Positions 21,616-39,674 are shown, counted from the first letter of the stretch. The stretch is DNA of 64,000 nt from an uncultured delta proteobacterium (GCA_963843145.1 CAWJJC010000020.1:512001-576000), one strand, 5' to 3'. The notes: generated by a model from the letters alone, not told the origin. Translations and numbers: made by a program.

Positions 21616-22989
21616 ATGACCGGACGGATATTGATCGTCGACGATGATTGGGACTTCCTCGAATTGATGAAGGCACGGTTGACCGGGGCCGGGTTTCAAC
21701 ACGTGCGAATCGAAGACGACCCTTTGAAAGCGGCAGTCTTGATTCAAACCGGAGAAGTGTTCGACATCGCCCTGATCGACATGACCATGCCGGAGATGAA
21801 CGGGCTGGAGTTGCTGGACCTGGTCAAAAACAACAGCCCCCGGACCGAATGCATCATGGTTACGGCCGTGAACGATGTGCGCATAGCCGTTCGCTGCCTT
21901 AGAAAAGGGGCCTACGATTATCTGGTCAAGCCGATCAGCGAAGAGGATCTCGTTTTTTCACTCAGGCGGACCCTCGAAAAAAAAAGGCTTCTGGAGATTC
22001 TGGACCTGGAAAAAAGCAGGGCCTTGCCGGTTTTGTCTCATCCCGAAGCCTTTCAGGCCATCATCACCCGGTCACCGGGGATGCTGCGGCTGCTGAAAGA
22101 GGCCGAGCTGCATAGCGGCAGCGAGGTGCCCATTCTCATTACGGGGGAAAGCGGCACCGGCAAGGAACTTCTGGCCCGGGCCATTCACGCCGTCAGTCCG
22201 CGTGCCCGGTATCCGTTCATGCCGGTCAACATGGCAGCGGTCAGCGCCACCCTGTTTGAAGCCGAATTTTTTGGTCACACCCGGGGCGCCTTTACCGGCG
22301 CGGAGAAGGAACGGCTGGGCTACCTGAAACATGCCAATCATGGAACGTTGTTTTTGGATGAAATCGGCAATCTACCCCAGGAGATGCAGGGCAAGCTGTT
22401 GCGGGTTCTTCAGGATGGTGAATACACCCCGGTGGGCTCCAGCCTCAGCCAAAAGGTGGACGTACGCATCGTGGCCGCCACCAATGAAGATCTGGAAGAA
22501 TTGATATCCAAGAAACTTTTTCGCAAGGACCTATACTACCGGATCCGGGGTGGATGGCTGCACCTGCCGCCACTCCGGGAAAGGCCGGAAGACATCCCCC
22601 TGTTGGTGGACCATTTTCTAGATGAATTCTGCCCCCCGGCCCTGCGCTGCCGGATCGATGAAGAGGCCCTCGCCCTTCTCCGGCAATACCCCTATCCGGG
22701 GAACATTCGGGAACTACGCTCCGTCATCCAATCCGCCGTCAATCTTGCCCAAGGCGGGGCCATCACCTCCGGCCTGCTGCCGGCCCCGTTCCGGGAAAAT
22801 CAAAAACCGCGGCCTGCCAGTCCCCCGGACGATGATCTTGCCGCCGGCCTAACCCTGGCCGACATGGAAAAGGCCTATCTCCTCAAGGTCTACCGGCAGT
22901 TGAAACAAAACAAATCCCAAACCGCCCGCCGGTTGGGAATCGGTCTGAACACCCTGCGAAGGAAATTGAAGGATTTCGGGGTCACCTGA
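21616..22989 (+). CDS. Sigma54-dependent response regulator (REC-AAA+-Fis HTH)
   Basis: REC domain, GESGTGKE, GAFTGA, LFLDEIG, FRKDLYYR, PGNIREL and C-terminal HTH (NKSQTARRLGIGLNTLRRKL). Confidence 0.95.
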   Translation: MTGRILIVDDDWDFLELMKARLTGAGFQHVRIEDDPLKAAVLIQTGEVFDIALIDMTMPEMNGLELLDLVKNNSPRTECIMVTAVNDVRIAVRCLRKGAYDYLVKPISEEDLVFSLRRTLEKKRLLEILDLEKSRALPVLSHPEAFQAIITRSPGMLRLLKEAELHSGSEVPILITGESGTGKELLARAIHAVSPRARYPFMPVNMAAVSATLFEAEFFGHTRGAFTGAEKERLGYLKHANHGTLFLDEIGNLPQEMQGKLLRVLQDGEYTPVGSSLSQKVDVRIVAATNEDLEELISKKLFRKDLYYRIRGGWLHLPPLRERPEDIPLLVDHFLDEFCPPALRCRIDEEALALLRQYPYPGNIRELRSVIQSAVNLAQGGAITSGLLPAPFRENQKPRPASPPDDDLAAGLTLADMEKAYLLKVYRQLKQNKSQTARRLGIGLNTLRRKLKDFGVT

Positions 22990-23051
22990 TCGGCGGGTTT
23001 AATACAAAAGTAAAAGTCAGAACAAGTGGATACGGTATGGGACCAATGGTC

Positions 23052-23114
23052 AACGACTCTCTGATCGTCGCCCTGATGGAGGAAACAGGAATTATTTATT
23101 TGGCAACTAGCGAT
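23052..23114 (+). pseudogene. Remnant of a PIN-domain (VapC-like) toxin C-terminus
   Basis: Reads NDSLIVALMEETGIIYLATSD, the typical PIN D..I.A......I..LAT.D segment; the rest of the gene is absent. Confidence 0.5.
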
Positions 23115-23134
23115 GCCAGTATTCAGTTGTATAA

Positions 23135-23202
23135 AATAGCTTCCTGTACTCCTTCTATTAAAAATTTACCAAAACTGCCAGATTTCGAACGCTATTCGTT
23201 AA
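23135..23202 (+). repeat. Cassette end motif L, copy 1
   Basis: AATAGCTTCCTGTA-N26-CTGCCAGATTTCGAACG, with identical spacing to the copy at 28103. Confidence 0.75.
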
Positions 23203-23566
23203 CGAGGTGGTGAGAGACTCAACCTCCCGTAGGACTTCGTTTTTTTAAGAAGTCTCCCCTTACCGTCTCGGTTCTTCAAGCTCCCCGGCTTTGGCAAAGG
23301 TTTTAGGGATCCGCCACCCGGAAACCCCACAAAAATAAAGTCTTTTCAATCAAAAAATACACTGTTTACCTTATTGCTATCTTTTAATTGATATCGTTAC
23401 GTAAGATCTTAGGGGCATGAAATCCAAGATTTTTCAAGGGATAGCTTAAAAGTCTAATTCCCTTGTGCCTCAATTTGGGACGTCGTTCCGAAATGTTCCC
23501 ACCTGTTAGTCAAACCAAATGATCAGCCGGTAGGTTTTGAATTGAACGGAGCGAAAAGGAGAGAAG

Positions 23567-24821
23567 ATGAAAATCAAGAATTTCAGATTCCCGACGCTTT
23601 TAACGACTGGATTGATGCTGGCCTTGCTTTGGTCCGCGCCTGTCCAGGCCGATGGTGTGGTCACCAATTGCAGCGACGACGTCCAGTTCAGCAAGCTAAT
23701 GTCCGGCGGCGGGACCGTTACGTTTAGCTGCGGTACGGCACTGATCAACCTGAACAGCACCCAGATCATCCCCCCTGCCGCCAATACGACGATTGACGGC
23801 GGCGGGCAGATCACGCTGAGCGGGCAGAACGCGCGGCAGTTGTTTGTTGTCAGCACCGGGGCCTCGCTGACGCTGTGCGATATTGTGCTGACGAACGGCT
23901 TTAGCGGCGGTGACGCCGGGGCGATCTTGAATGACATAGGCGGAGTGTTAATCCTGGAGAACAGCGCCATCCGGGACAGCAACGCCGGCCTTAGTGGCGG
24001 CGCGATAGTCAGCTACGGACCGCTGACCATTACCAACAGCCGCTTGGAAGGCAACCGGGCGCTCAACGGCGGTGCTTTGTATCCGCGTTTTGCCGGTGCA
24101 GCAACGAAGATCGTCAACAGTGTGCTGCGGGATAACCACGCCACGGACACGACCACCAATGGCTGGGGCGGGGCCATCCTGGCCTGGGATGGGGCGCGGG
24201 TGACGATTGAGGGCAGCGAGATCTTCAGCAACAGTGCGCAATATGGCGGTGGTATCTACAACAACCTCCTCAACTCGTCGGTCACTCTCAACGGAAGCAC
24301 ACTTCATGACAACACGGGGCGGCATCTACAACTTCGGCGCCACGGCGACGCTGACCAACGTCACGCTTAGCGGCAACTGGGCAACCTACCACGGCGGCGG
24401 CATATACCATTATGGCGGTACTGGTCAGACGATCACACTCAAGAACACCATCGTCGCAAAAGGCAGTTCGGGTGAAAACCGCGACATAGAACCTGGCAGT
24501 GTGACGAGCATCACATCGAACAACTACAATCTCTCCAGCGATGATTCGTGCACGCTGTACTTTAATCAGGGTCACGACCAGAACAATCAGTCCGCACAAC
24601 TCGGACCGCTCGCAAACAGCGGCGGATCCACACTGACACAATTGCCGCTGCCGCCTATCAAGAACGGCATCGGTCCGATTGATAATGGCACACGCCCTAA
24701 CGGATCGTTTGACCAACGCGGCGTGTCGCGACCACAAGGCGCGGCGTGTGATATCGGCGCCGTGGGGTACCGCACGGGTGAAGAGTTGCTGAAACTGTAT
24801 CTGCCGCTGATTGTGCGATAA
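23567..24821 (+). CDS. Secreted beta-helix (Pmp-like GGAI/GGGI repeat) protein with choice-of-anchor-Q-like C-terminal domain; frameshifted near 24317
   Basis: Signal peptide, GGTVTFSCG, TIDGGGQITLSG, GGAI repeats, LGPLANSGGSTLT, DQRGVSRPQGAACDIGAV, ends LYLPLIVR. Split over ORFs 23567-24370 and 24207-24821. Confidence 0.75.
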
Positions 24822-24835
24822 ATTCACCCGGTGTT

Positions 24836-24869
24836 ACTGGGAATCGGCAATGCCGGTTCCCAGTTTTTT
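24836..24869 (+). terminator. Intrinsic terminator
   Basis: ACTGGGAATCGGCA-A-TGCCGGTTCCCAGT followed by TTTTT. Confidence 0.75.
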
Positions 24870-25085
24870 ACGCCGGTTAGTGTTCCACGCGGACGTGGAG
24901 TATAATAAACCATTTCACCGAGGGGGAAAACAAAATGAATCTACATCACTTGCTCCATGCGCCGGGAAGGCGATGGATGATTCTGTTGACATTTGCTATC
25001 TCGGCGCTCGCCGAATCCGACTGAGATGCTCGTGGTGCATAACCTCGGAACGCAGTAAACGTGTGAACAATTTCAGGAGGGATAA

Positions 25086-26864
25086 ATGAACACACACATC
25101 TTTCGATTTCTTTTCAGCAGAAGATCTGCGTTGATGATCGCATTGTTGCTGTTCCTAAAACCGACACCGGCGCTGGCTGGCGGCGTCGTCGGCAGCGGAA
25201 CGCCGGGCAGTTGCACCGAATCGGCGCTCGACAGCGCTTTAGCCGGCGGCGGGAGTGTAACTTTTAACTGCGGCGGAGCGGCGTCCATTCTCATTCAAAG
25301 TGTCAAGGTCATTAGCCAGACCACGACGATTGATGGCGGCAGTCAAATCACGCTGACTGGCAATCTCACCACACGCCTGTTCACGAATAGCGCGACTTTG
25401 ACGCTGCAAAATATCATCCTCGACCGCGCTGGCAGCACGGGCTCGGATGGCGGCGCGATTACCAACAGCGGCACGTTGAATTTGCAGAACAGCACGATTC
25501 AGAATAGCCAGACCGATAACAATCACAGCGGCGGCGCGATTTTCAGTTCAGGTCCGGTGAACATCAGCAACAGCACCTTGAAGAATAACACCGGCGGCAG
25601 CGCGGGGGCGATGTTCATAAATAGTGCGCTTGCAGTCGCGCGAATCAGTAACAGTACGTTCAGCAACAACAAAACGACAAATACGATCACCGGCTTTGGC
25701 GGCGCCATCTGGGTGGGCGAGCAAGCGCAAGTCTCCATCACGGGCGGCGCGATCATCAGCAACTCGGCTCAATATGGCGGCGGCCTGTACCTATCCGCAA
25801 ACGCGACGGTCACACTCTCGTCCGCGGGCGCACCGGCGATTGTCGCTGGCAATTCAGCGACGACTTCCGGCGGTGGTGTCGACAACAGTGGTGGCCATGT
25901 GACGCTGACGAACGTCACGTTCAGCGGTAATTCGGCTGGATATGGCGGCGGTCTGACCAACGACCAGGTTAGCGGCATGGCGACCCTGACCAACGTAACG
26001 CTCAGCAGTAATTCCGCCGCCGTTGGCGGGGGCGGCATTTACAACAACCATGGCACGGCGATGTTGGCGAACGTCATCATCATCGGCAACGTGGTGACCA
26101 ACACTTTCGGCTCACCAACGTACGGCGGCGGCATTGAGAATTACGGCACGCTGACGCTGACCAACTCCACGCTGAGCGGCAACCTCGCAACCGGCAACTT
26201 CGGTGGGTTGTCTTTTGGCGGCGGCTTATACAACAACTTCTACACCAGCCAGGACACGGCGACAGTGATTAACTCCACCCTGAGCGGTAACTCAGCCTAT
26301 GCCGGCGGCGGCATTCTCAACGTTGGCACCCTCACGCTGACCAACTCCACCCTTAGTGCCAACTCGGCGACCACTACCGGCGGCGGCATTGAGAACTACC
26401 AAGGCACGGCGATGGTGATTAACGTCACGCTCAGCGGCAACTCGGCCAATACCGGCGGCGGCATCTTCCAACAGAGCCAGGCTCCCACTCAGACTATCAC
26501 TTTGAAGAACACAATATTGGTGAGCGGGCCGTCAGGCGCCAACTGCTACGAAGATCCATCGAGCATTGGTAGCCTCCTGTCGAATGGGTACAATCTCACC
26601 AGTGAGGGAACCTGCGCGCCGTATATCCACAACACCGGCGATGTGAACAACGAGAATCCCAATCTCGGACCGCTGGCCAATAATGGGGGGCCCACCTTGA
26701 CCCATATGCCCCAGGCCGGCAGTCCAGCCATTGACCACGGGTCCGAATGCCCGGCCTTCGACCAGCGCGGCGCCGCCCGGCCGGTGGGTCCGGCCTGCGA
26801 CATCGGCGCGGTCGAGTATGGAGTGCTCCTGCCAAGGCTGTATCTGCCGCTGATCTTAAAATAA
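25086..26864 (+). CDS. Secreted beta-helix repeat protein with choice-of-anchor-Q-like domain
   Basis: Signal peptide, VVGSGTPGSCTE, TLTNSTLSGN repeats, LGPLANNGGPTLTHMPQAGSPAID, DQRG..RP.GPACDIGAVE, ends LYLPLILK. Confidence 0.85.
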   Translation: MNTHIFRFLFSRRSALMIALLLFLKPTPALAGGVVGSGTPGSCTESALDSALAGGGSVTFNCGGAASILIQSVKVISQTTTIDGGSQITLTGNLTTRLFTNSATLTLQNIILDRAGSTGSDGGAITNSGTLNLQNSTIQNSQTDNNHSGGAIFSSGPVNISNSTLKNNTGGSAGAMFINSALAVARISNSTFSNNKTTNTITGFGGAIWVGEQAQVSITGGAIISNSAQYGGGLYLSANATVTLSSAGAPAIVAGNSATTSGGGVDNSGGHVTLTNVTFSGNSAGYGGGLTNDQVSGMATLTNVTLSSNSAAVGGGGIYNNHGTAMLANVIIIGNVVTNTFGSPTYGGGIENYGTLTLTNSTLSGNLATGNFGGLSFGGGLYNNFYTSQDTATVINSTLSGNSAYAGGGILNVGTLTLTNSTLSANSATTTGGGIENYQGTAMVINVTLSGNSANTGGGIFQQSQAPTQTITLKNTILVSGPSGANCYEDPSSIGSLLSNGYNLTSEGTCAPYIHNTGDVNNENPNLGPLANNGGPTLTHMPQAGSPAIDHGSECPAFDQRGAARPVGPACDIGAVEYGVLLPRLYLPLILK

Positions 26865-26914
26865 TTAAGCCAGGTCCGTTGCAAGGGCGATATAACGACA
26901 GACTATTTTCGAAT

Positions 26915-26988
26915 AGATTTCGAACCATAATCCTTAAATCTGGTGGATAATAAAAATCAGCAGTAGTAGGTGAATTCAATGAGGCCAG
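26915..26988 (+). repeat. Cassette end motif R, copy 1 (contains inverted AGATTT...AAATCT core)
   Basis: AGATTTCGAAC-CA-TAATCCTT-N21-TCAGCAGTAGTAGGTGAA, then GAGGCCAG. Same spacing as the copy at 30107. Confidence 0.75.
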
Positions 26989-27160
26989 AAATATTATTTA
27001 AAATAAGGTAGTTATGGATTGGCCTCCGAGGATACATTCTCATTTCTTAGATTATTTTCAGGTCCCTTTTCCGACCATCCGGCAGACTTTTTATTTGCCT
27101 TTGAACTCTTCATAATGGGGGGACCCCCATTAATCTCCAATCCTACCAAGGAGGTACCGT

Positions 27161-28001
27161 ATGAAGACCAAAGAGGCCATTTCCTTGTTCCAAACTTATC
27201 AGAGGTCCAGTCATCGGAAAAGGACCCTCCAGAGCTATCTGCCGATGCTCAACCAGTTCAAGGCCCTGTACGGGGAAACGGTATTTGAAAATCTCGGGTC
27301 TGATGAGGTTATACCGCTTTCTGGAAAGCCTGACCCAGGGCCTGGCCCGATCAACCCGGAGACTCCGGTATGCCCAGCTCAAATCCTTTTTCAATTTTGT
27401 CATCAACCGGTGCGATCTGGACATAAAAAATCCTTGCAACACGTCGCTGCTCTCCAAGACCTTCCGGACCCCGAAACAGAGCCCCAGGAGAATTTTCGAA
27501 AAAGAGGCGATCCATGAGATTATCTACAACACCAAAAACCTCCGAGACCGGTTGATCCTGGAACTCCAGGCTCGCTGTGGGCTTCGGGTCGGGGAGTCTT
27601 TAAAGATCAAGGTATCGTATATCTCGGAGAGGAAAATAGTCCTCCGGGAGCCGGAGTCCGGGAAAGATGCCGAGGTGGCCTATATGCCGGAGCCGATTGC
27701 CAAGCGTTTGGAGGAATATGTCCGAACCCAAAAACTGGGGCCGGATGATCGTCTTTTCCCGGTTTCTTATTCAACGGTCAGGTCATTGATCAAAAGCCTT
27801 GGGTCCCAGCTTAAAATTTCGATCAGGCCCCATGACCTCCGGCGGCATTCGGCCACTTATGCCAGTCGAAATGGGGTCCCCTTGGAGATTGTTTCCAAGG
27901 TGATTTTGAGGCACCAGGACCTGAAGACCACCCAGGCCTATTTGGGCAGGGTGAGCGAGACGGAAGCCATCCGGTGGATGGACATCATTCACGGGAAGTA
28001 G
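27161..28001 (+). CDS. Small tyrosine recombinase/integrase (about 280 aa), one +1 frameshift near 27310
   Basis: N-terminal SAM-like region; RDRLILELQARCGLRVGE (catalytic R), PHDLRRH, ILRHQDLKTTQAYL (H and Y). AAGGAGG RBS before 27161. Confidence 0.88.
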
Positions 28002-28102
28002 GCAGGTTAACCTGTTGATTACCATTATAAATATGGAGGTTTTGGGGGTGTTTTTGAGGCGGCCTGGTGGAGGTTTTTAGGGAGACCGGGGGCTATCCGA
28101 AC

Positions 28103-28170
28103 AATAGCTTCCTGTAGTTTTGTTTTAGAATTATGGCCTGACCTGCCAGATTTCAAACGAAAATTATTAG
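28103..28170 (+). repeat. Cassette end motif L, copy 2
   Basis: AATAGCTTCCTGTA-N26-CTGCCAGATTTCAAACG. Confidence 0.75.
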
Positions 28171-28383
28171 TCATCACCCAAATAGACACGGTGAAGGTAT
28201 CCCCAGCTTTTTTCCACGAGCCTATCCCTACCAGGATCAATAAAATACTCTTTTTGCCTTATTGACATTGAGTCTTTCCCGATCAATAATTCATTAATAT
28301 TATGAAGATACTAATATTTCCAGGTTAGGGGTCCTGCTGTAAGTTTGAATAAACCACTATTGAGCGATGGAGGCCTGTCAGCG

Positions 28384-29985
28384 ATGAAATTCATTCGAAT
28401 CCTGATCCTCTGGATTGTTAGCCTATTTCCAGCTTTTATAATAGTTCCTTCATCTCAAGCGGTCGATGCCGTGGTCGGGGGGGCCTGTACGGATACAGAA
28501 TTCAATACGGCTTTGAACACCGTTCAAAGCACGGGAGGCGGAACGATTACCTTCAACTGCGGCACGTCGCCGGTCATCATTACCGTAACCGGGGCCAAGC
28601 CCATCAGCAGCCAAACGACCATTGACGGTGGATCCCTGATCACTCTCAGCGGCGCGAATGCCTCTCGGGTTTTCTTGGTGAATCCGGGCATATCGCTAAC
28701 GTTAAATAACCTGACCGTCACCAAGGGTTTGAGCAGTAGCGATGACGGCGGTGCGATTCGTAACGAGGGTACACTGAACATTAATAACTGTAAATTCATC
28801 AACAACCAAACCGGCTCGGCGTGGAGCGGCGGAGCCATCGTCAGTTATGGACCGCTGAATATTGCCGATAGCGAATTCGCGAACAACTCGGCCGGGAACG
28901 GTGGCGCGCTTTACCCTCGCTACGCGCCTGCCGTAACCACCATTACCCGCAGTACTTTTCACGACAACGTGGCTATAAACACGACCAACGGCTGGGGCGG
29001 GGCGATCCTGGCCTGGGATGGCGCGCCGGTGACGATTGAGGGCAGCGACATCTTCAACAACAGTAGTGCTAATTTTGGGGGGGGTATCTACATCTCCCCC
29101 AATTCGTCGGTCACTTTCAACGGAAGCACGCTTCACGACAACACGGCCGGATTCACCGGCGGTGGTGTCTACAACAACAACGGCACGGCGACCCTGACCA
29201 ACGTCACTCTCAGCGGCAACTCGACCAGTCTGGGCAGCGGCGGCGGAATCGGCAACAATAATAACGGCACGGCGACCCTGACCAACGTCACCCTCAGCGG
29301 CAACTCGGTCTCTTTTGGCGGGGGCGGATTTTCCAACTTAAACAACGGCACGGCGACCCTGACCAACGTCACCCTCAGCGGCAACTCGGCCGGATACGCC
29401 GGCGGTGGTGTCTACAACAACAACGGCACGGCGACCCTGACCAACGTCACTCTCAGCGGCAACTCGGTCTCTTATCACGGCGGCGGATTCTACAACATAG
29501 ACGGCACGGCGACCCTGACCAACGTCACCCTCAGCGGCAACTCGGCCCCTTATGGCGGCGGTATCTACCAAATCGGTTCCCTCAGTGGCCAGATCGTGAA
29601 GCTGAAGAATTCCATCGTAGCCAACAGCCCTGAGGGTGGAAACTGTTTTCAAAGTCCAAGCAGTTCGACCAACATCACATCAAGCGGTTTCAATCTTTCC
29701 AGCGACAACTCCTGCACGTCATATTTCACTCAAGCCGGCGATCAAAATAACAAACCCGCGCAGCTCGGTCCTTTGGCGAACAACGGCGGATTTACGCTGA
29801 CGCATCTGCCGCTGCCCCCCATCGCAGGAGGCACCGGTCCGATTGATAATGGCTCTTGCCTGGTCGGGTCATTTGACCAGCGCGGCGTGATGCGCCCTCA
29901 AGGATCTGCATGTGATATCGGCGCGGTGGAGTACCGCCAGGGGGAGCTAACACCGTGGTTGTACCTACCGCTGATCGAGAGATAG
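28384..29985 (+). CDS. Secreted beta-helix repeat protein with choice-of-anchor-Q-like domain
   Basis: MKFIRILILW signal peptide after GGAGG; paralog of the 23567 gene (near-identical DNA around TTNGWGGAILAWDGA); five GTATLTNVTLSGNS repeats; ends LYLPLIER. Confidence 0.87.
   Translation: MKFIRILILWIVSLFPAFIIVPSSQAVDAVVGGACTDTEFNTALNTVQSTGGGTITFNCGTSPVIITVTGAKPISSQTTIDGGSLITLSGANASRVFLVNPGISLTLNNLTVTKGLSSSDDGGAIRNEGTLNINNCKFINNQTGSAWSGGAIVSYGPLNIADSEFANNSAGNGGALYPRYAPAVTTITRSTFHDNVAINTTNGWGGAILAWDGAPVTIEGSDIFNNSSANFGGGIYISPNSSVTFNGSTLHDNTAGFTGGGVYNNNGTATLTNVTLSGNSTSLGSGGGIGNNNNGTATLTNVTLSGNSVSFGGGGFSNLNNGTATLTNVTLSGNSAGYAGGGVYNNNGTATLTNVTLSGNSVSYHGGGFYNIDGTATLTNVTLSGNSAPYGGGIYQIGSLSGQIVKLKNSIVANSPEGGNCFQSPSSSTNITSSGFNLSSDNSCTSYFTQAGDQNNKPAQLGPLANNGGFTLTHLPLPPIAGGTGPIDNGSCLVGSFDQRGVMRPQGSACDIGAVEYRQGELTPWLYLPLIER
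29180..29544 (+). repeat. Intragenic tandem array: five 44-bp near-identical units separated by variable 34-40 bp segments
   Basis: ACGGCACGGCGACCCTGACCAACGTCACYCTCAGCGGCAACTCG at 29180, 29264, 29345, 29423 and 29501; periods 84, 81, 78, 78. Confidence 0.9.
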
Positions 29986-30093
29986 AAATCCGTTTTCTTT
30001 TTAGCACATGAAGAAAATATTCCGAGTCCCCCCAAGGGGTACCAATTTGAAGCCTGCCCCGTGTTTTACTGCTGGTTAGCCGGTTTGGCTGAA

Positions 30094-30199
30094 CACCTTC
30101 AATCGGTAATCCTTTATTCTTCAAGCTTATGGTGTTCAACAGTAGTAGGTGAAAGCACCTCCTATTGAACAAAACCCTCCACGAAAAATTCGAGGCCAG
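30094..30199 (+). repeat. Cassette end motif R, copy 2
   Basis: TAATCCTT(30107)-N21-TCAACAGTAGTAGGTGAA(30136-30153); GAGGCCAG at 30192. Confidence 0.7.
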
Positions 30200-30341
30200 G
30201 AATGGAGCGGTCCGGTAATAATCCTGGGGACAGTTCCCCACCCAACAAAAGGGCGTCGTACAGGTCCGGATTGATCTCTTTGGTCAGACGCCGGGGAGCG
30301 CGGAGCCAGACCGGAATGCTCTTCTCGCTAAGAGAAGCTAT

Positions 30342-31183
30342 TTAAGATCCCTCCTCCAGCGGTCGGTCATCGAAAACCACCTGTTCAGCGCCGTTGTACA
30401 CCAGGAAGCGTTTGCCTCGGGCCCGGGCGATGATCGTCATGTTCAGGCCTTGGGCCAGTTCCAGACCCATATGGGTGACGCCCGATCGGGACAGGAGCAC
30501 GGGGATACGCATGATCGCGGCCTTCATCACAATCTCCGAGGTCAGGCGTCCGGTGGTATACAGGATCTTGTCCTCCCCCGGGATCCGTTCCAGCCACATC
30601 CGCCCGGAGATGGCGTCGGCGGCATTGTGGCGACCCACATCTTCGAAAAACAGCAGCACCCGGTCCTCCCGGCACAGTCCGCAGCCGTGCACCGATCCGG
30701 CCTGTTTGTAGAGGACGTCACTTTGAGAAACCGCCTTCTTCAAACCATAGAGATGAGATTGGCGCACGGCTAAGGGGGGAGGCGCAGTTCCAGTATCTTG
30801 TCCAGGGTGCAACTGAAGATAGTCCCCTGACCGCAGCCTGTGGTTACCGTCATCTTCGAGATTTTTTCTTTCAGTTCGGATATGCCCTGACCGTGGGTGG
30901 TCCGCAGGAGGGCGATTTCCTTCTCCCAGTCCACGGTCACCGAAGCGATCTCTTCAATCCGCTCAACCAATCGCTGATTGCGTAGGTACCCTAGGGCCAG
31001 TTCCTCCGGATGGGTGCCCAGGGTCATCAGGGTGACGATTTCCTGTCCGTCGATTTTTAGGGTCAGCGGCGTCTCTCCGGGGACCCAGATTTCCCGCCGT
31101 TCCCCCAAATGATTGACCACCGTGGCCCGATGAACCGGCGAGCGGCCGGCCTGCGTCATCTGAGGGCGGTAACTAGCCGTCAA
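30342..31183 (-). CDS. fdhD: Formate dehydrogenase accessory sulfurtransferase FdhD (one-base loss in a C-run near 30775)
   Basis: GETPLTLKIDGQEIVTLMT, TTGCGQG, GSVHGC, EDVGRHNA and TTGRLTSE motifs; split across two ORFs. Confidence 0.88.
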
Positions 31184-32772: not shown

Positions 32773-33128
32773 AACGAACATTGAACATCGAACGTCCAAC
32801 ATCCAACATCGAATGAAAAACAAACCGGCATTGCCGAAAAGGGAACACCTATTCACAGCCTCATATTTGTATTTACCCGGGGTGTTCTTTTTATCTCTCG
32901 CCCGCTTCGCTCGAGTTCGCCGAGGGCACAGAGAAAAACGAATTTATTCGCTGAGCGGGAGATTTTTTCTGATTGCCGGCCTCTCAGCGGCAATCAGAAA
33001 TTATATTTCTCTGCGATCTTTGTGTGCTCTGTGAGAAATCGTCTTCTTTCTTTGGTTGTGACTGGGCGGCGTTAAAGAATCCAGTCAATACACATTCGAT
33101 GTTGGACGTTCGATGTTCGATGTTCATC
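32773..33128. repeat. Nested inverted-repeat elements (7-nt GAACATC/CAACATC heptad arms enclosing further palindromes)
   Basis: Left arm GAACATTGAACATCGAACGTCCAACATCCAACATCGAATG; right arm is its reverse complement at 33093-33128. Inner hairpin TTTCTGATTGCCG...CGGCAATCAGAAA. Confidence 0.8.
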
Positions 33129-39513: not shown

Positions 39514-39595
39514 AGCTGTTTTTTCTCTTGACTCCGGATTGGTCTCATTTTAAATTATTCGAGCCTTAAAACTGTCTTAAAATAGATTTTAGTGT

Positions 39596-39647
39596 AGCGA
39601 TGGGGTTCGCTTAACCGTCCTGCGGAATCGGGACTGATAACTCCTGC
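39596..39647 (+). ncRNA. Fluoride (crcB) riboswitch aptamer
   Basis: AGCGAUGGGGUUCGCU-UAACC-GUCC...GGAC-UGAUAACUCCUGC matches the GGCGAUGGxGUUCGCC...GCUAAUGACxCCUAC pattern, including the pseudoknot pairing GGGGUU/AACUCC. Confidence 0.88.
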
Positions 39648-39674
39648 CGAGAAAATTATTGGCAGGAGTTTTTT
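39639..39674 (+). terminator. Riboswitch expression-platform terminator
   Basis: AACTCCTGCCGA...TTGGCAGGAGTT followed by a T-run; it overlaps the 3' strand of the aptamer pseudoknot. Confidence 0.85.

Follow-up and report, generated by a model that had tools for sequence, protein, structure and literature searches.

A 64,000-nt stretch of the genome of an uncultured delta proteobacterium (C20:512001-576000 of an assembly of 5.35 Mb in 32 contigs, here G000), termed the window throughout, carries between positions 23,135 and 30,199 an array of surface-protein genes and a tyrosine recombinase gene (int), in which each stretch of cargo is bounded by an L site on its left and an R site on its right. 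An L site consists of the 7-mer CTTCCTG (X), 35 nt and a 17-nt core (consensus ATTTCAAACGGTAATCC), and an R site consists of the core, 32 nt and the 7-mer GTAGGTG (Y), the core being placed on the cargo side in both. The features of the locus are the following.

23037..23134, plus strand: left flank, a short reading frame running into L1, without an integrase-module tail
23135..23198, plus strand: L1 (X at 23140-23146, 35 nt, core at 23182-23198; nhmmer E 4e-10)
23567..24821, plus strand: cassette 1 gene 1, a secreted beta-helix / Pmp-repeat protein (Pfam Beta_helix, Chlam_PMP)
25086..26864, plus strand: cassette 1 gene 2, a 592-aa paralogue with a C-terminal choice-of-anchor Q domain (NCBIfam NF041518, 89 bits)
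26915..26974, plus strand: R1 (core at 26917-26933, 32 nt, Y at 26966-26972)
26966..28114, plus strand: integrase module from Y to X (leader, inverted-repeat arm, int, second arm, tail, X)
27161..28001, plus strand: int, a Xer-like tyrosine recombinase gene, frameshifted (Pfam PF00589, tblastn)
28103..28166, plus strand: L2 (X at 28108-28114, 35 nt, core at 28150-28166)
28345..29985, plus strand: cassette 2, a 546-aa beta-helix / choice-of-anchor Q protein (Pfam Beta_helix, Chlam_PMP; NF041518)
30096..30153, plus strand: R2, the right array end (consensus-like core at 30096-30112, 32 nt, Y at 30145-30151)
30154..31183, minus strand: right chromosomal flank, 174 nt common to the same-genus genome G002, then fdhD (Pfam FdhD-NarQ)

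This gene content, with two beta-helix genes between L1 and R1, a third between L2 and R2 and a tyrosine recombinase in the gap, had been proposed in a first-pass annotation of the window and was borne out. The three cargo genes are paralogues with common repeat families, and gene 1 of cassette 1 is read in two frames (23567-24370 and 24207-24821). The short frame of the left flank matched the C-terminus of the Pfam PIN domain at E 0.078 (14 bits, below the cut-off of 23.6) and is possibly a remnant. A sigma-54 activator also lies left of the array and had no close counterpart in the three same-genus genomes searched.

The bipartite motifs described in the first-pass annotation were recovered at 23135 and 28103 (L) and at 26928 and 30107 (R), with the internal spacing given there. 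L1 reads AATAGCTTCCTGTA, N26, CTGCCAGATTTCGAACG from 23135, and L2 has the same blocks with A for G in the second; R1 reads TAATCCTT, N21, TCAGCAGTAGTAGGTGAA from 26928, and R2 is the same with A for G. The spacers between the blocks are unrelated in sequence, while their lengths are fixed. In the whole assembly the L pattern gave three forward and no reverse matches and the R pattern two forward matches, the reversed control pattern giving none for L and the control none for R. The directly repeated core that L and R had been said to share was upheld in part: its 11-mer alone is within chance in the window, where four matches with at most one mismatch were found against a shuffle mean of 2.62 (30 of 100 shuffles reached four), but the core is accepted as real because throughout the family it is conserved at a constant distance from the other block. 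R1 likewise has the inverted arms AGATTT...AAATCT, but neither the alignment of 27 R sites nor the logo of 52 shows them to be conserved.

Altogether, 26 L sites and 27 R sites align at fixed spacing, and in logos drawn from 78 distinct X sites and 52 distinct Y sites the 7-mers are near-invariant. Its fixed distance from the 7-mer suggests an accessory role for the core, which probably serves as an accessory or architectural site. A sigma-54 promoter, an IHF-site core and the core as a dif half-site were considered and dropped on inspection by eye. Past the L core, several sites of the genome (e.g., C2:115729, C12:157546, and C10:92968) have a conserved stretch with TCGTTGA..., a C-rich run and ATTAAGGGT, which could be a promoter or another site.

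Modules recurring between X and Y

Profile models of the sites, applied to the G000 genome at E 0.05, detected 25 L sites and 17 R sites. An R site lies 0.3-7 kb downstream on the same strand of 14 of the 25 L sites, as against 0.28 expected, and none lies there on the opposite strand. On contig C2, the sites form the array L-cargo-R-int-L-cargo-R-L-cargo-R-int-L-cargo-R-L, which can be written K-I-K-J-K-I-K-J-K if K denotes cargo, I the integrase module and J a gene-free R-to-L interval. The gene-free intervals measure 29-106 nt and look like a collapsed integrase module. At C8:33802-35999 (minus strand), a group II intron reverse transcriptase/maturase was found between R and L, in the place where the integrase is expected, and an integrase-tail-like sequence precedes the L site.

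Cassettes measure 1.2-6.5 kb and often hold several genes. Surface and repeat proteins of the beta-helix, Lcl_C, Ig-like, BNR/sortilin and DUF7948-SBBP types are encoded in the genome's own cassettes, as are PAS histidine kinases, response regulators, cyclase-STAND-TPR and HD-domain signalling proteins, STAND NTPases and MFS transporters. The cargo of other metagenome-assembled genomes (MAGs) comprises kinases, a choloylglycine-hydrolase-like enzyme, a formamidase, an aldo-keto reductase, a flavoprotein with cytochrome c3, UbiD with a TRAP transporter, and ankyrin, NHL and TSP3 repeat proteins. The proposal that the system shuffles surface-protein genes was therefore too narrow: the site pairs do bracket variable cargo, but this cargo also includes kinases, cyclases, STAND NTPases, enzymes and transporters.

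A blastn search with positions 22001-31000 of the window against the assembly gave three informative matches. On C26, cassette 1 (23139-26972) is present from X to Y in a second copy with 98-99% identity, set in unrelated flanks between xanthine-dehydrogenase-like genes and a hydroxyisobutyrate-dehydrogenase-like gene; no integrase lies on either side of this copy, and yet it ends exactly at X and Y. The integrase module (26966-28114) recurs at C2:117656-118805 with 92.1% identity, exactly from Y to X, while int and cassette 2 together (26966-30152) recur at C2:126204-129436 with 96.8% identity, this match reaching 26917 through weaker R-to-R similarity. The junctions share GCTTCCTG at L and GTAGGTG at R. 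Since GTAGGTG stands at both ends of the unit of int and cassette 2 on C20 and on C2, in flanks that differ, the unit has the identical ends of an attL/attR pair. Recently shared segments do not break at the shared core; they break at CTTCCTG, in the first L block, and at GTAGGTG, in the second R block. On C26, an IS3-family insertion (C26:9044-10313, with rve domains) breaks the second copy of cassette 1 gene 1.

Different cassettes at one and the same locus were also seen. Contigs C12 and C26 have flanks that are 97.7-97.9% identical and cassettes that differ, and the right break lies directly upstream of GTAGGTG. In G002, another cassette lies next to fdhD, and the sequence matches that of the window (94% identity) from 30145, where Y starts, onward; G003 has no array beside fdhD, but the adjacent 174 nt are missing as well. 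On contig C14 of G002, ~5.3 kb with a single L..R cassette stand in place of window positions 4050-30144 (~26 kb), and this part without a G002 counterpart includes heterodisulfide-reductase-like, MTHFR and sensor-kinase genes in addition to the array, so that G002 did not provide a clean empty site.

The exact 28-nt head of the integrase module was found on seven metagenome contigs, which together with two own copies give nine contexts, each with a different R arm joined to the module exactly at GTAGGTG. The mean pairwise identity among the nine was 0.25 at -120..-55, 0.42 in the spacer, 1.0 in GTAGGTG and 0.83 at +7..+60. The 45 high-identity segment pairs of L/R-bearing regions had 138 distinct ends, of which 17 fell at X and 15 at Y, against a chance expectation of ~0.4 by our own arithmetic, the ends not being independent of one another. 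Three other assemblies between them contained a whole contig of 1153 bp running from Y to X, a contig ending at Y and a contig starting at X. Shares of the window stretch found in 17 public runs were small (0.27 at best); two run contigs end at 26973, one of which carries a further 12 letters that do not align, and this is a weak hint only. No convincing empty X-core-Y site was found, and three 100-bp candidates were discarded as overlapping partial model matches having only the core in common.

A further element of ~2.1 kb, with two tandem tyrosine recombinases ~25% identical to int, was found inserted in X. Its ends are perfect 10-bp inverted repeats (CTATACGTAC...GTACGTATAG), CTTCCTG stands on either side of it, and copies lie at C28:349768-351876, C10:93042-95150 and C13:72765-74873 and, in a foreign genome, at locus L060 just downstream of int. 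From its insertion site the element looks like a site-specific parasite of the cassette system. An insertion of this kind, with CTTCCTG left and right, marks the 7 bp of X as a target of recombination.

The integrase and its relatives

Three copies of int were detected in the G000 genome by tblastn. Compared with the intact copy, that of the window carries an additional T at 27308/9, and an independent short contig that spans this place without a gap has the shift too. Of the two copies on C2, one (C2:126448-127287) is intact and encodes 279 aa, and the other is broken at several places. The intact protein matched PF00589 at 70.7 bits (cut-off 27.1), the C-terminal frame of the window copy reaching 62.9 bits, and it combines the integrase catalytic domain with a SAM-like N-terminal domain. 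The catalytic R, H-x-x-R, H and Y are present, with LRVGE, PHDLRRH, LRHQD and TTQAY aligning with the XerD motifs (phmmer; XerD 1a0p, XerA 5hxy and 4a8e); the motifs were placed by the XerD residue numbering. Domain and catalytic residues both assign the protein to the tyrosine recombinase superfamily. Among solved structures, XerA-like proteins and XerD come nearest, and the best NCBIfam match was archaeal XerA (NF040815) with 117.2 bits, below the cut-off of 220; TIGR02225 gave 64.3 bits (cut-off 329.6) and TIGR02224 gave 61.1 bits (cut-off 335). With these scores and three copies in one genome, int is a relative and no equivalog of the XerC, XerD or XerA dimer resolvases. A pattern scan of viral contigs confirmed no relative, and a phage or plasmid origin was set aside, the best plasmid and phage matches having at most 35% identity.

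A one-genome-per-species scan yielded 132 relatives among 181 candidate stretches, of which 80 were kept. These are 51-89% identical and often occur several to a MAG, the labels of the MAGs being Syntrophales, Syntrophorhabdales, Thermodesulfovibrionia/Nitrospirota, Acidobacteria, Ignavibacteria and others. The same layout is found in numerous bacteria of sediments and soils. In a search of 41 genomes of relatives, the window genome counted, eight had a match at E 1e-20. The 64 full-length loci revealed a recurring order of core, ~32 nt, Y, ~100 nt, inverted-repeat arm, int, inverted-repeat arm, ~55 nt, X, ~35 nt and core. In the foreign loci, 102 of 105 L/R matches were co-oriented with int, the profile models having been seeded from the same int loci on which they were scored. 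The order L..R int L..R also occurs in other MAGs, and L and R directly flank int in MAGs of several orders. The first-pass annotation had asked whether the motifs co-occur with this integrase family in the genome and in related MAGs and bracket variable cargo, and the searches showed that they do; the outcome that it had named as refuting was absent on all three counts, since the motifs occur elsewhere too, do not form a uniformly diverged duplication and are linked to int homologues.

An inverted repeat around int is near-universal in the family; in most of the 64 loci, int is enclosed by one of 8-15 bp, ~40 nt ahead of the start and ~32 nt past the stop, the candidate arms in the window lying at ~27132-27139 and ~28033-28040. 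The arms co-vary between subfamilies, which are of the CCCCAAAGACCTC, GCAGACCCYGGC and AACCTCCA types, and the upstream arm is preceded by a -10-like TATAAT or TACAAT box. The repeat could be an operator, or could serve in pairing of the 5' and 3' transcript ends.

Proposed cassette exchange and alternative readings

We consider it probable, at about 60%, that the region is a cointegrate (cassette-integrase-cassette) in a modular exchange system that has two heterospecific 7-bp crossover sites and a small Xer-like tyrosine recombinase. This two-site model is the simplest one that fits all junctions. Modules would alternate, cargo K running from X to Y and linkers from Y to X, a linker being either the integrase gene module I (~1.15 kb) or its 29-106-nt remnant J. 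X and Y would act as heterospecific 7-bp overlap regions, each recombining only with its own kind. A circle of I and one K would integrate at a resident Y or X and give K1-I-K2, the order seen in the window; resolution at the other type of site would then excise I together with the old cassette, and the cassette would have been exchanged. In the window, recombination of X by X would free cassette 1 and int (~4.97 kb), and recombination of Y by Y would free int and cassette 2 (~3.18 kb). What stands of the first-pass annotation is its view of the motifs as recombinase-associated site pairs around variable cargo.

Several observations weigh against the two-site model. The X and Y logos have only 2-4 weakly conserved flanking positions and no binding-arm dyad, which is unusual for a tyrosine-recombinase site, and they do not contain a site of the Xer/dif type (28-30 bp, with two ~11-bp inverted arms and a spacer of 6-8 bp). 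The best-conserved longer motif is the core, which lies 32-35 nt from the 7-mers and has no assigned role. The window copy of int is frameshifted, and activity would require the intact copy on C2. At E 0.01, the L/R models found an R site ahead of int in 22 of 60 loci and an L site behind it in 22 of 62 (both in 14 loci), and they matched no Nitrospirota-type locus. The left break between C12 and C26 lies ~95 nt ahead of X and not at X; it falls at GAAGGT(G), followed by a diverged integrase-tail-like leader, and may tentatively be read as Y-like. Moreover, the assembly is a MAG with 6.89% contamination, and C12 and C26 may be different strains. Some segment ends lie just past the L core or at the inverted repeat before int, and such off-site breaks make mosaicism at any conserved island an alternative to exchange at X and Y. 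As to intermediates, none of 25 whole contigs had the terminal overlap of a circular form, and no recombination product was found in four runs (150-700-nt contigs, depth ~3), where all joints listed lay in beta-helix repeats and none at L or R.

The reading nearest to the first-pass annotation is that of nested or tandem minimal elements, in which the mobile unit would be core-R-int-L-core (~1.25 kb) inserting at core-like targets, so that L1, R2 and the L..R pairs lacking an integrase would be ends of decayed copies and the "cassettes" would be chromosomal DNA between two insertions. The core is indeed directly repeated on both sides of int across the family, near-identical pairs of modules are alike through the L core and diverge just past it (L034/L036, 99.5%; L011/L012, 99%), and the short J linkers resemble integrase modules minus the gene. 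Recently shared segments, however, run past the cores and stop at X and Y, as does cassette 1 on C26, a cassette without an integrase on either side which the minimal element fails to explain; there is also the want of a convincing empty X-core-Y site, and the different cassettes that break at Y at one locus would be left unexplained. We regard this reading as unlikely. If instead L and R were conserved boundary elements, e.g., regulatory or accessory sequences of integrase elements, the mosaic could have arisen without dedicated exchange at X and Y, by rare homologous or illegitimate recombination at any short conserved island. Breakpoints past the L core and at the inverted repeat ~40 nt before int would be expected from such a process, as would X and Y flanks without clear binding arms. 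Homologous recombination, however, normally needs far more identity than 7-8 bp, which is what the junctions offer; one exact junction is common to nine contexts, the second recombinase-bearing element duplicates exactly CTTCCTG, and pairing and orientation are strict (14 same-strand L-to-R pairs and no opposite one; 102 of 105 matches co-oriented with int). This explanation is accordingly held to be rather improbable.

The remaining two readings concern the origin of the sites. That L and R are duplicated promoter and terminator regions of paralogous beta-helix genes, with the integrase as an unrelated insertion, would suit the window itself, where the three cargo genes are paralogous and have L upstream and R downstream. 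As L and R flank unrelated cargo (kinases, cyclases, enzymes, transporters) here and in other phyla, directly flank int in MAGs of several orders, and have unrelated spacers while the spacing is fixed, plain segmental duplication is untenable. A divergent integron, with a relative of IntI as recombinase and the R-linker-L intervals as attC-like folded single-strand sites, would account for a cassette array beside a tyrosine recombinase and for cargo that is mostly co-oriented from L to R (55 of 84 frames in the own genome, by a tally of the printed rows, and 32 of 42 in other MAGs). Nevertheless, the IntI model TIGR02249 gave 55.4 bits where 265 are required, and matched only residues 15-191 of a protein of just 279 aa, and NF011946 gave 29.7 bits against 435; the sites are conserved in sequence, the end motifs are direct and not inverted, and the cassettes are 1.2-6.5 kb long and often hold several genes. 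Seven single-strand DNA folds (L1, L2, R1, R2 and three R-linker-L intervals) revealed no attC-like structure, with z from +1.51 to -1.69. The earlier remark that no attC or IntI patch is evident thus holds, and because of the low IntI score and the absent folded sites an integron is highly improbable.

Known systems and further features of the window

The closest analogue is the dif-module system of Acinetobacter. Passages of PMC13141974 describe modules bounded by inversely oriented pdif sites, with C and D modules alternating, and discuss a model in which a cointegrate forms and is then resolved at a second pair of sites with matching spacers. Together with PMC10132070, they indicate several likenesses to the present arrays, namely discrete accessory modules between short recombination sites, one module in different contexts, a proposed movement by cointegrate and resolution, and insertion sequences that target the sites. 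The dif modules differ in that they use 11-6-11 dif-like sites with conserved arms, variable spacers and inverted neighbours, depend on the host XerC and XerD, and reside on Rep_3/OrfX plasmids. Here, in contrast, it is the 7-mer itself that is conserved, and a further motif lies 32-35 nt off; all sites are direct and not inversely oriented as pdif sites are, there are only two types of site, the recombinase lies inside the array, and the arrays appear chromosomal, in MAGs of anaerobic Desulfobacterota and Nitrospirota.

With integrons, the system has in common a tyrosine recombinase next to mostly co-oriented cassettes whose functions are variable and often unknown or niche-adaptive, but it has no IntI-specific domain and no folded palindromic sites, its recombinase lies between cassettes and not at one end, and its cassettes have two different ends, are larger and are often multi-gene. 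The unit of int and cassette 2, bounded by Y on both sides at two loci, recalls classical integrative elements, from which the system differs by the second crossover-like site X inside the unit, by cassettes without an integrase, by arrays of many units and by the absence from the window of a tRNA or other gene target. Engineered recombinase-mediated cassette exchange with heterospecific lox/FRT pairs (PMC3100306) follows the same logic, in that two sites differing in the overlap flank a cassette and lead to a swap and not to mere excision; that is a laboratory design, whereas here the analogy is drawn from breakpoints only and the recombinase gene would travel with the donor circle.

Full-text literature searches returned papers on integrons, Xer and dif modules, and no description of these sites or this arrangement. 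Rather tentatively, and with the balance slightly against it, we suggest that the arrays could be a third natural cassette platform beside integrons and dif modules, with a self-encoded Xer-like recombinase, natural exchange between the heterospecific 7-bp sites CTTCCTG and GTAGGTG, a 17-nt distal accessory motif guiding each of them, horizontal spread across anaerobic Desulfobacterota, Nitrospirota and neighbouring phyla, multi-gene cargo of 1-6 kb and its own X-inserting parasite. If exchange takes place as proposed, a cassette system would partly drive genome plasticity in poorly cultured anaerobes (Syntrophales, Syntrophorhabdales, Thermodesulfovibrionia), in which sensory, surface and metabolic genes would be swapped as defined modules, and current integron and mobile-element finders would miss such cassettes. 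It would also be a natural test of a simple tyrosine recombinase that uses a short crossover site plus a distal motif, and, with its compact size of 279 aa and its two short orthogonal sites, the recombinase would be of practical use to the engineering of cassette exchange. With the two 7-mers and the core, such cassettes can be mapped simply in metagenomes.

With regard to the rest of the window, no tRNA was found in it, and its sole Rfam match was a fluoride riboswitch at 39587-39653 (RF01734, 42.1 bits); as this lies elsewhere, a tRNA or RNA gene as target of the array was discarded. Frameshifts split three genes of the window, namely fdhD (30770-30812), beta-helix gene 1 (24207-24370) and int (27308). 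The fdhD gene is read in the assembly as 30342-30812 and 30770-31183; an extra G at 30773 was present in one public run, and this frameshift may be an assembly error. A dispersed repeat of ~100-150 nt, unrelated to L or R, lies at 32850-33000 and has dozens of copies across the assembly, one of which sits 120 nt past an L site on C2.

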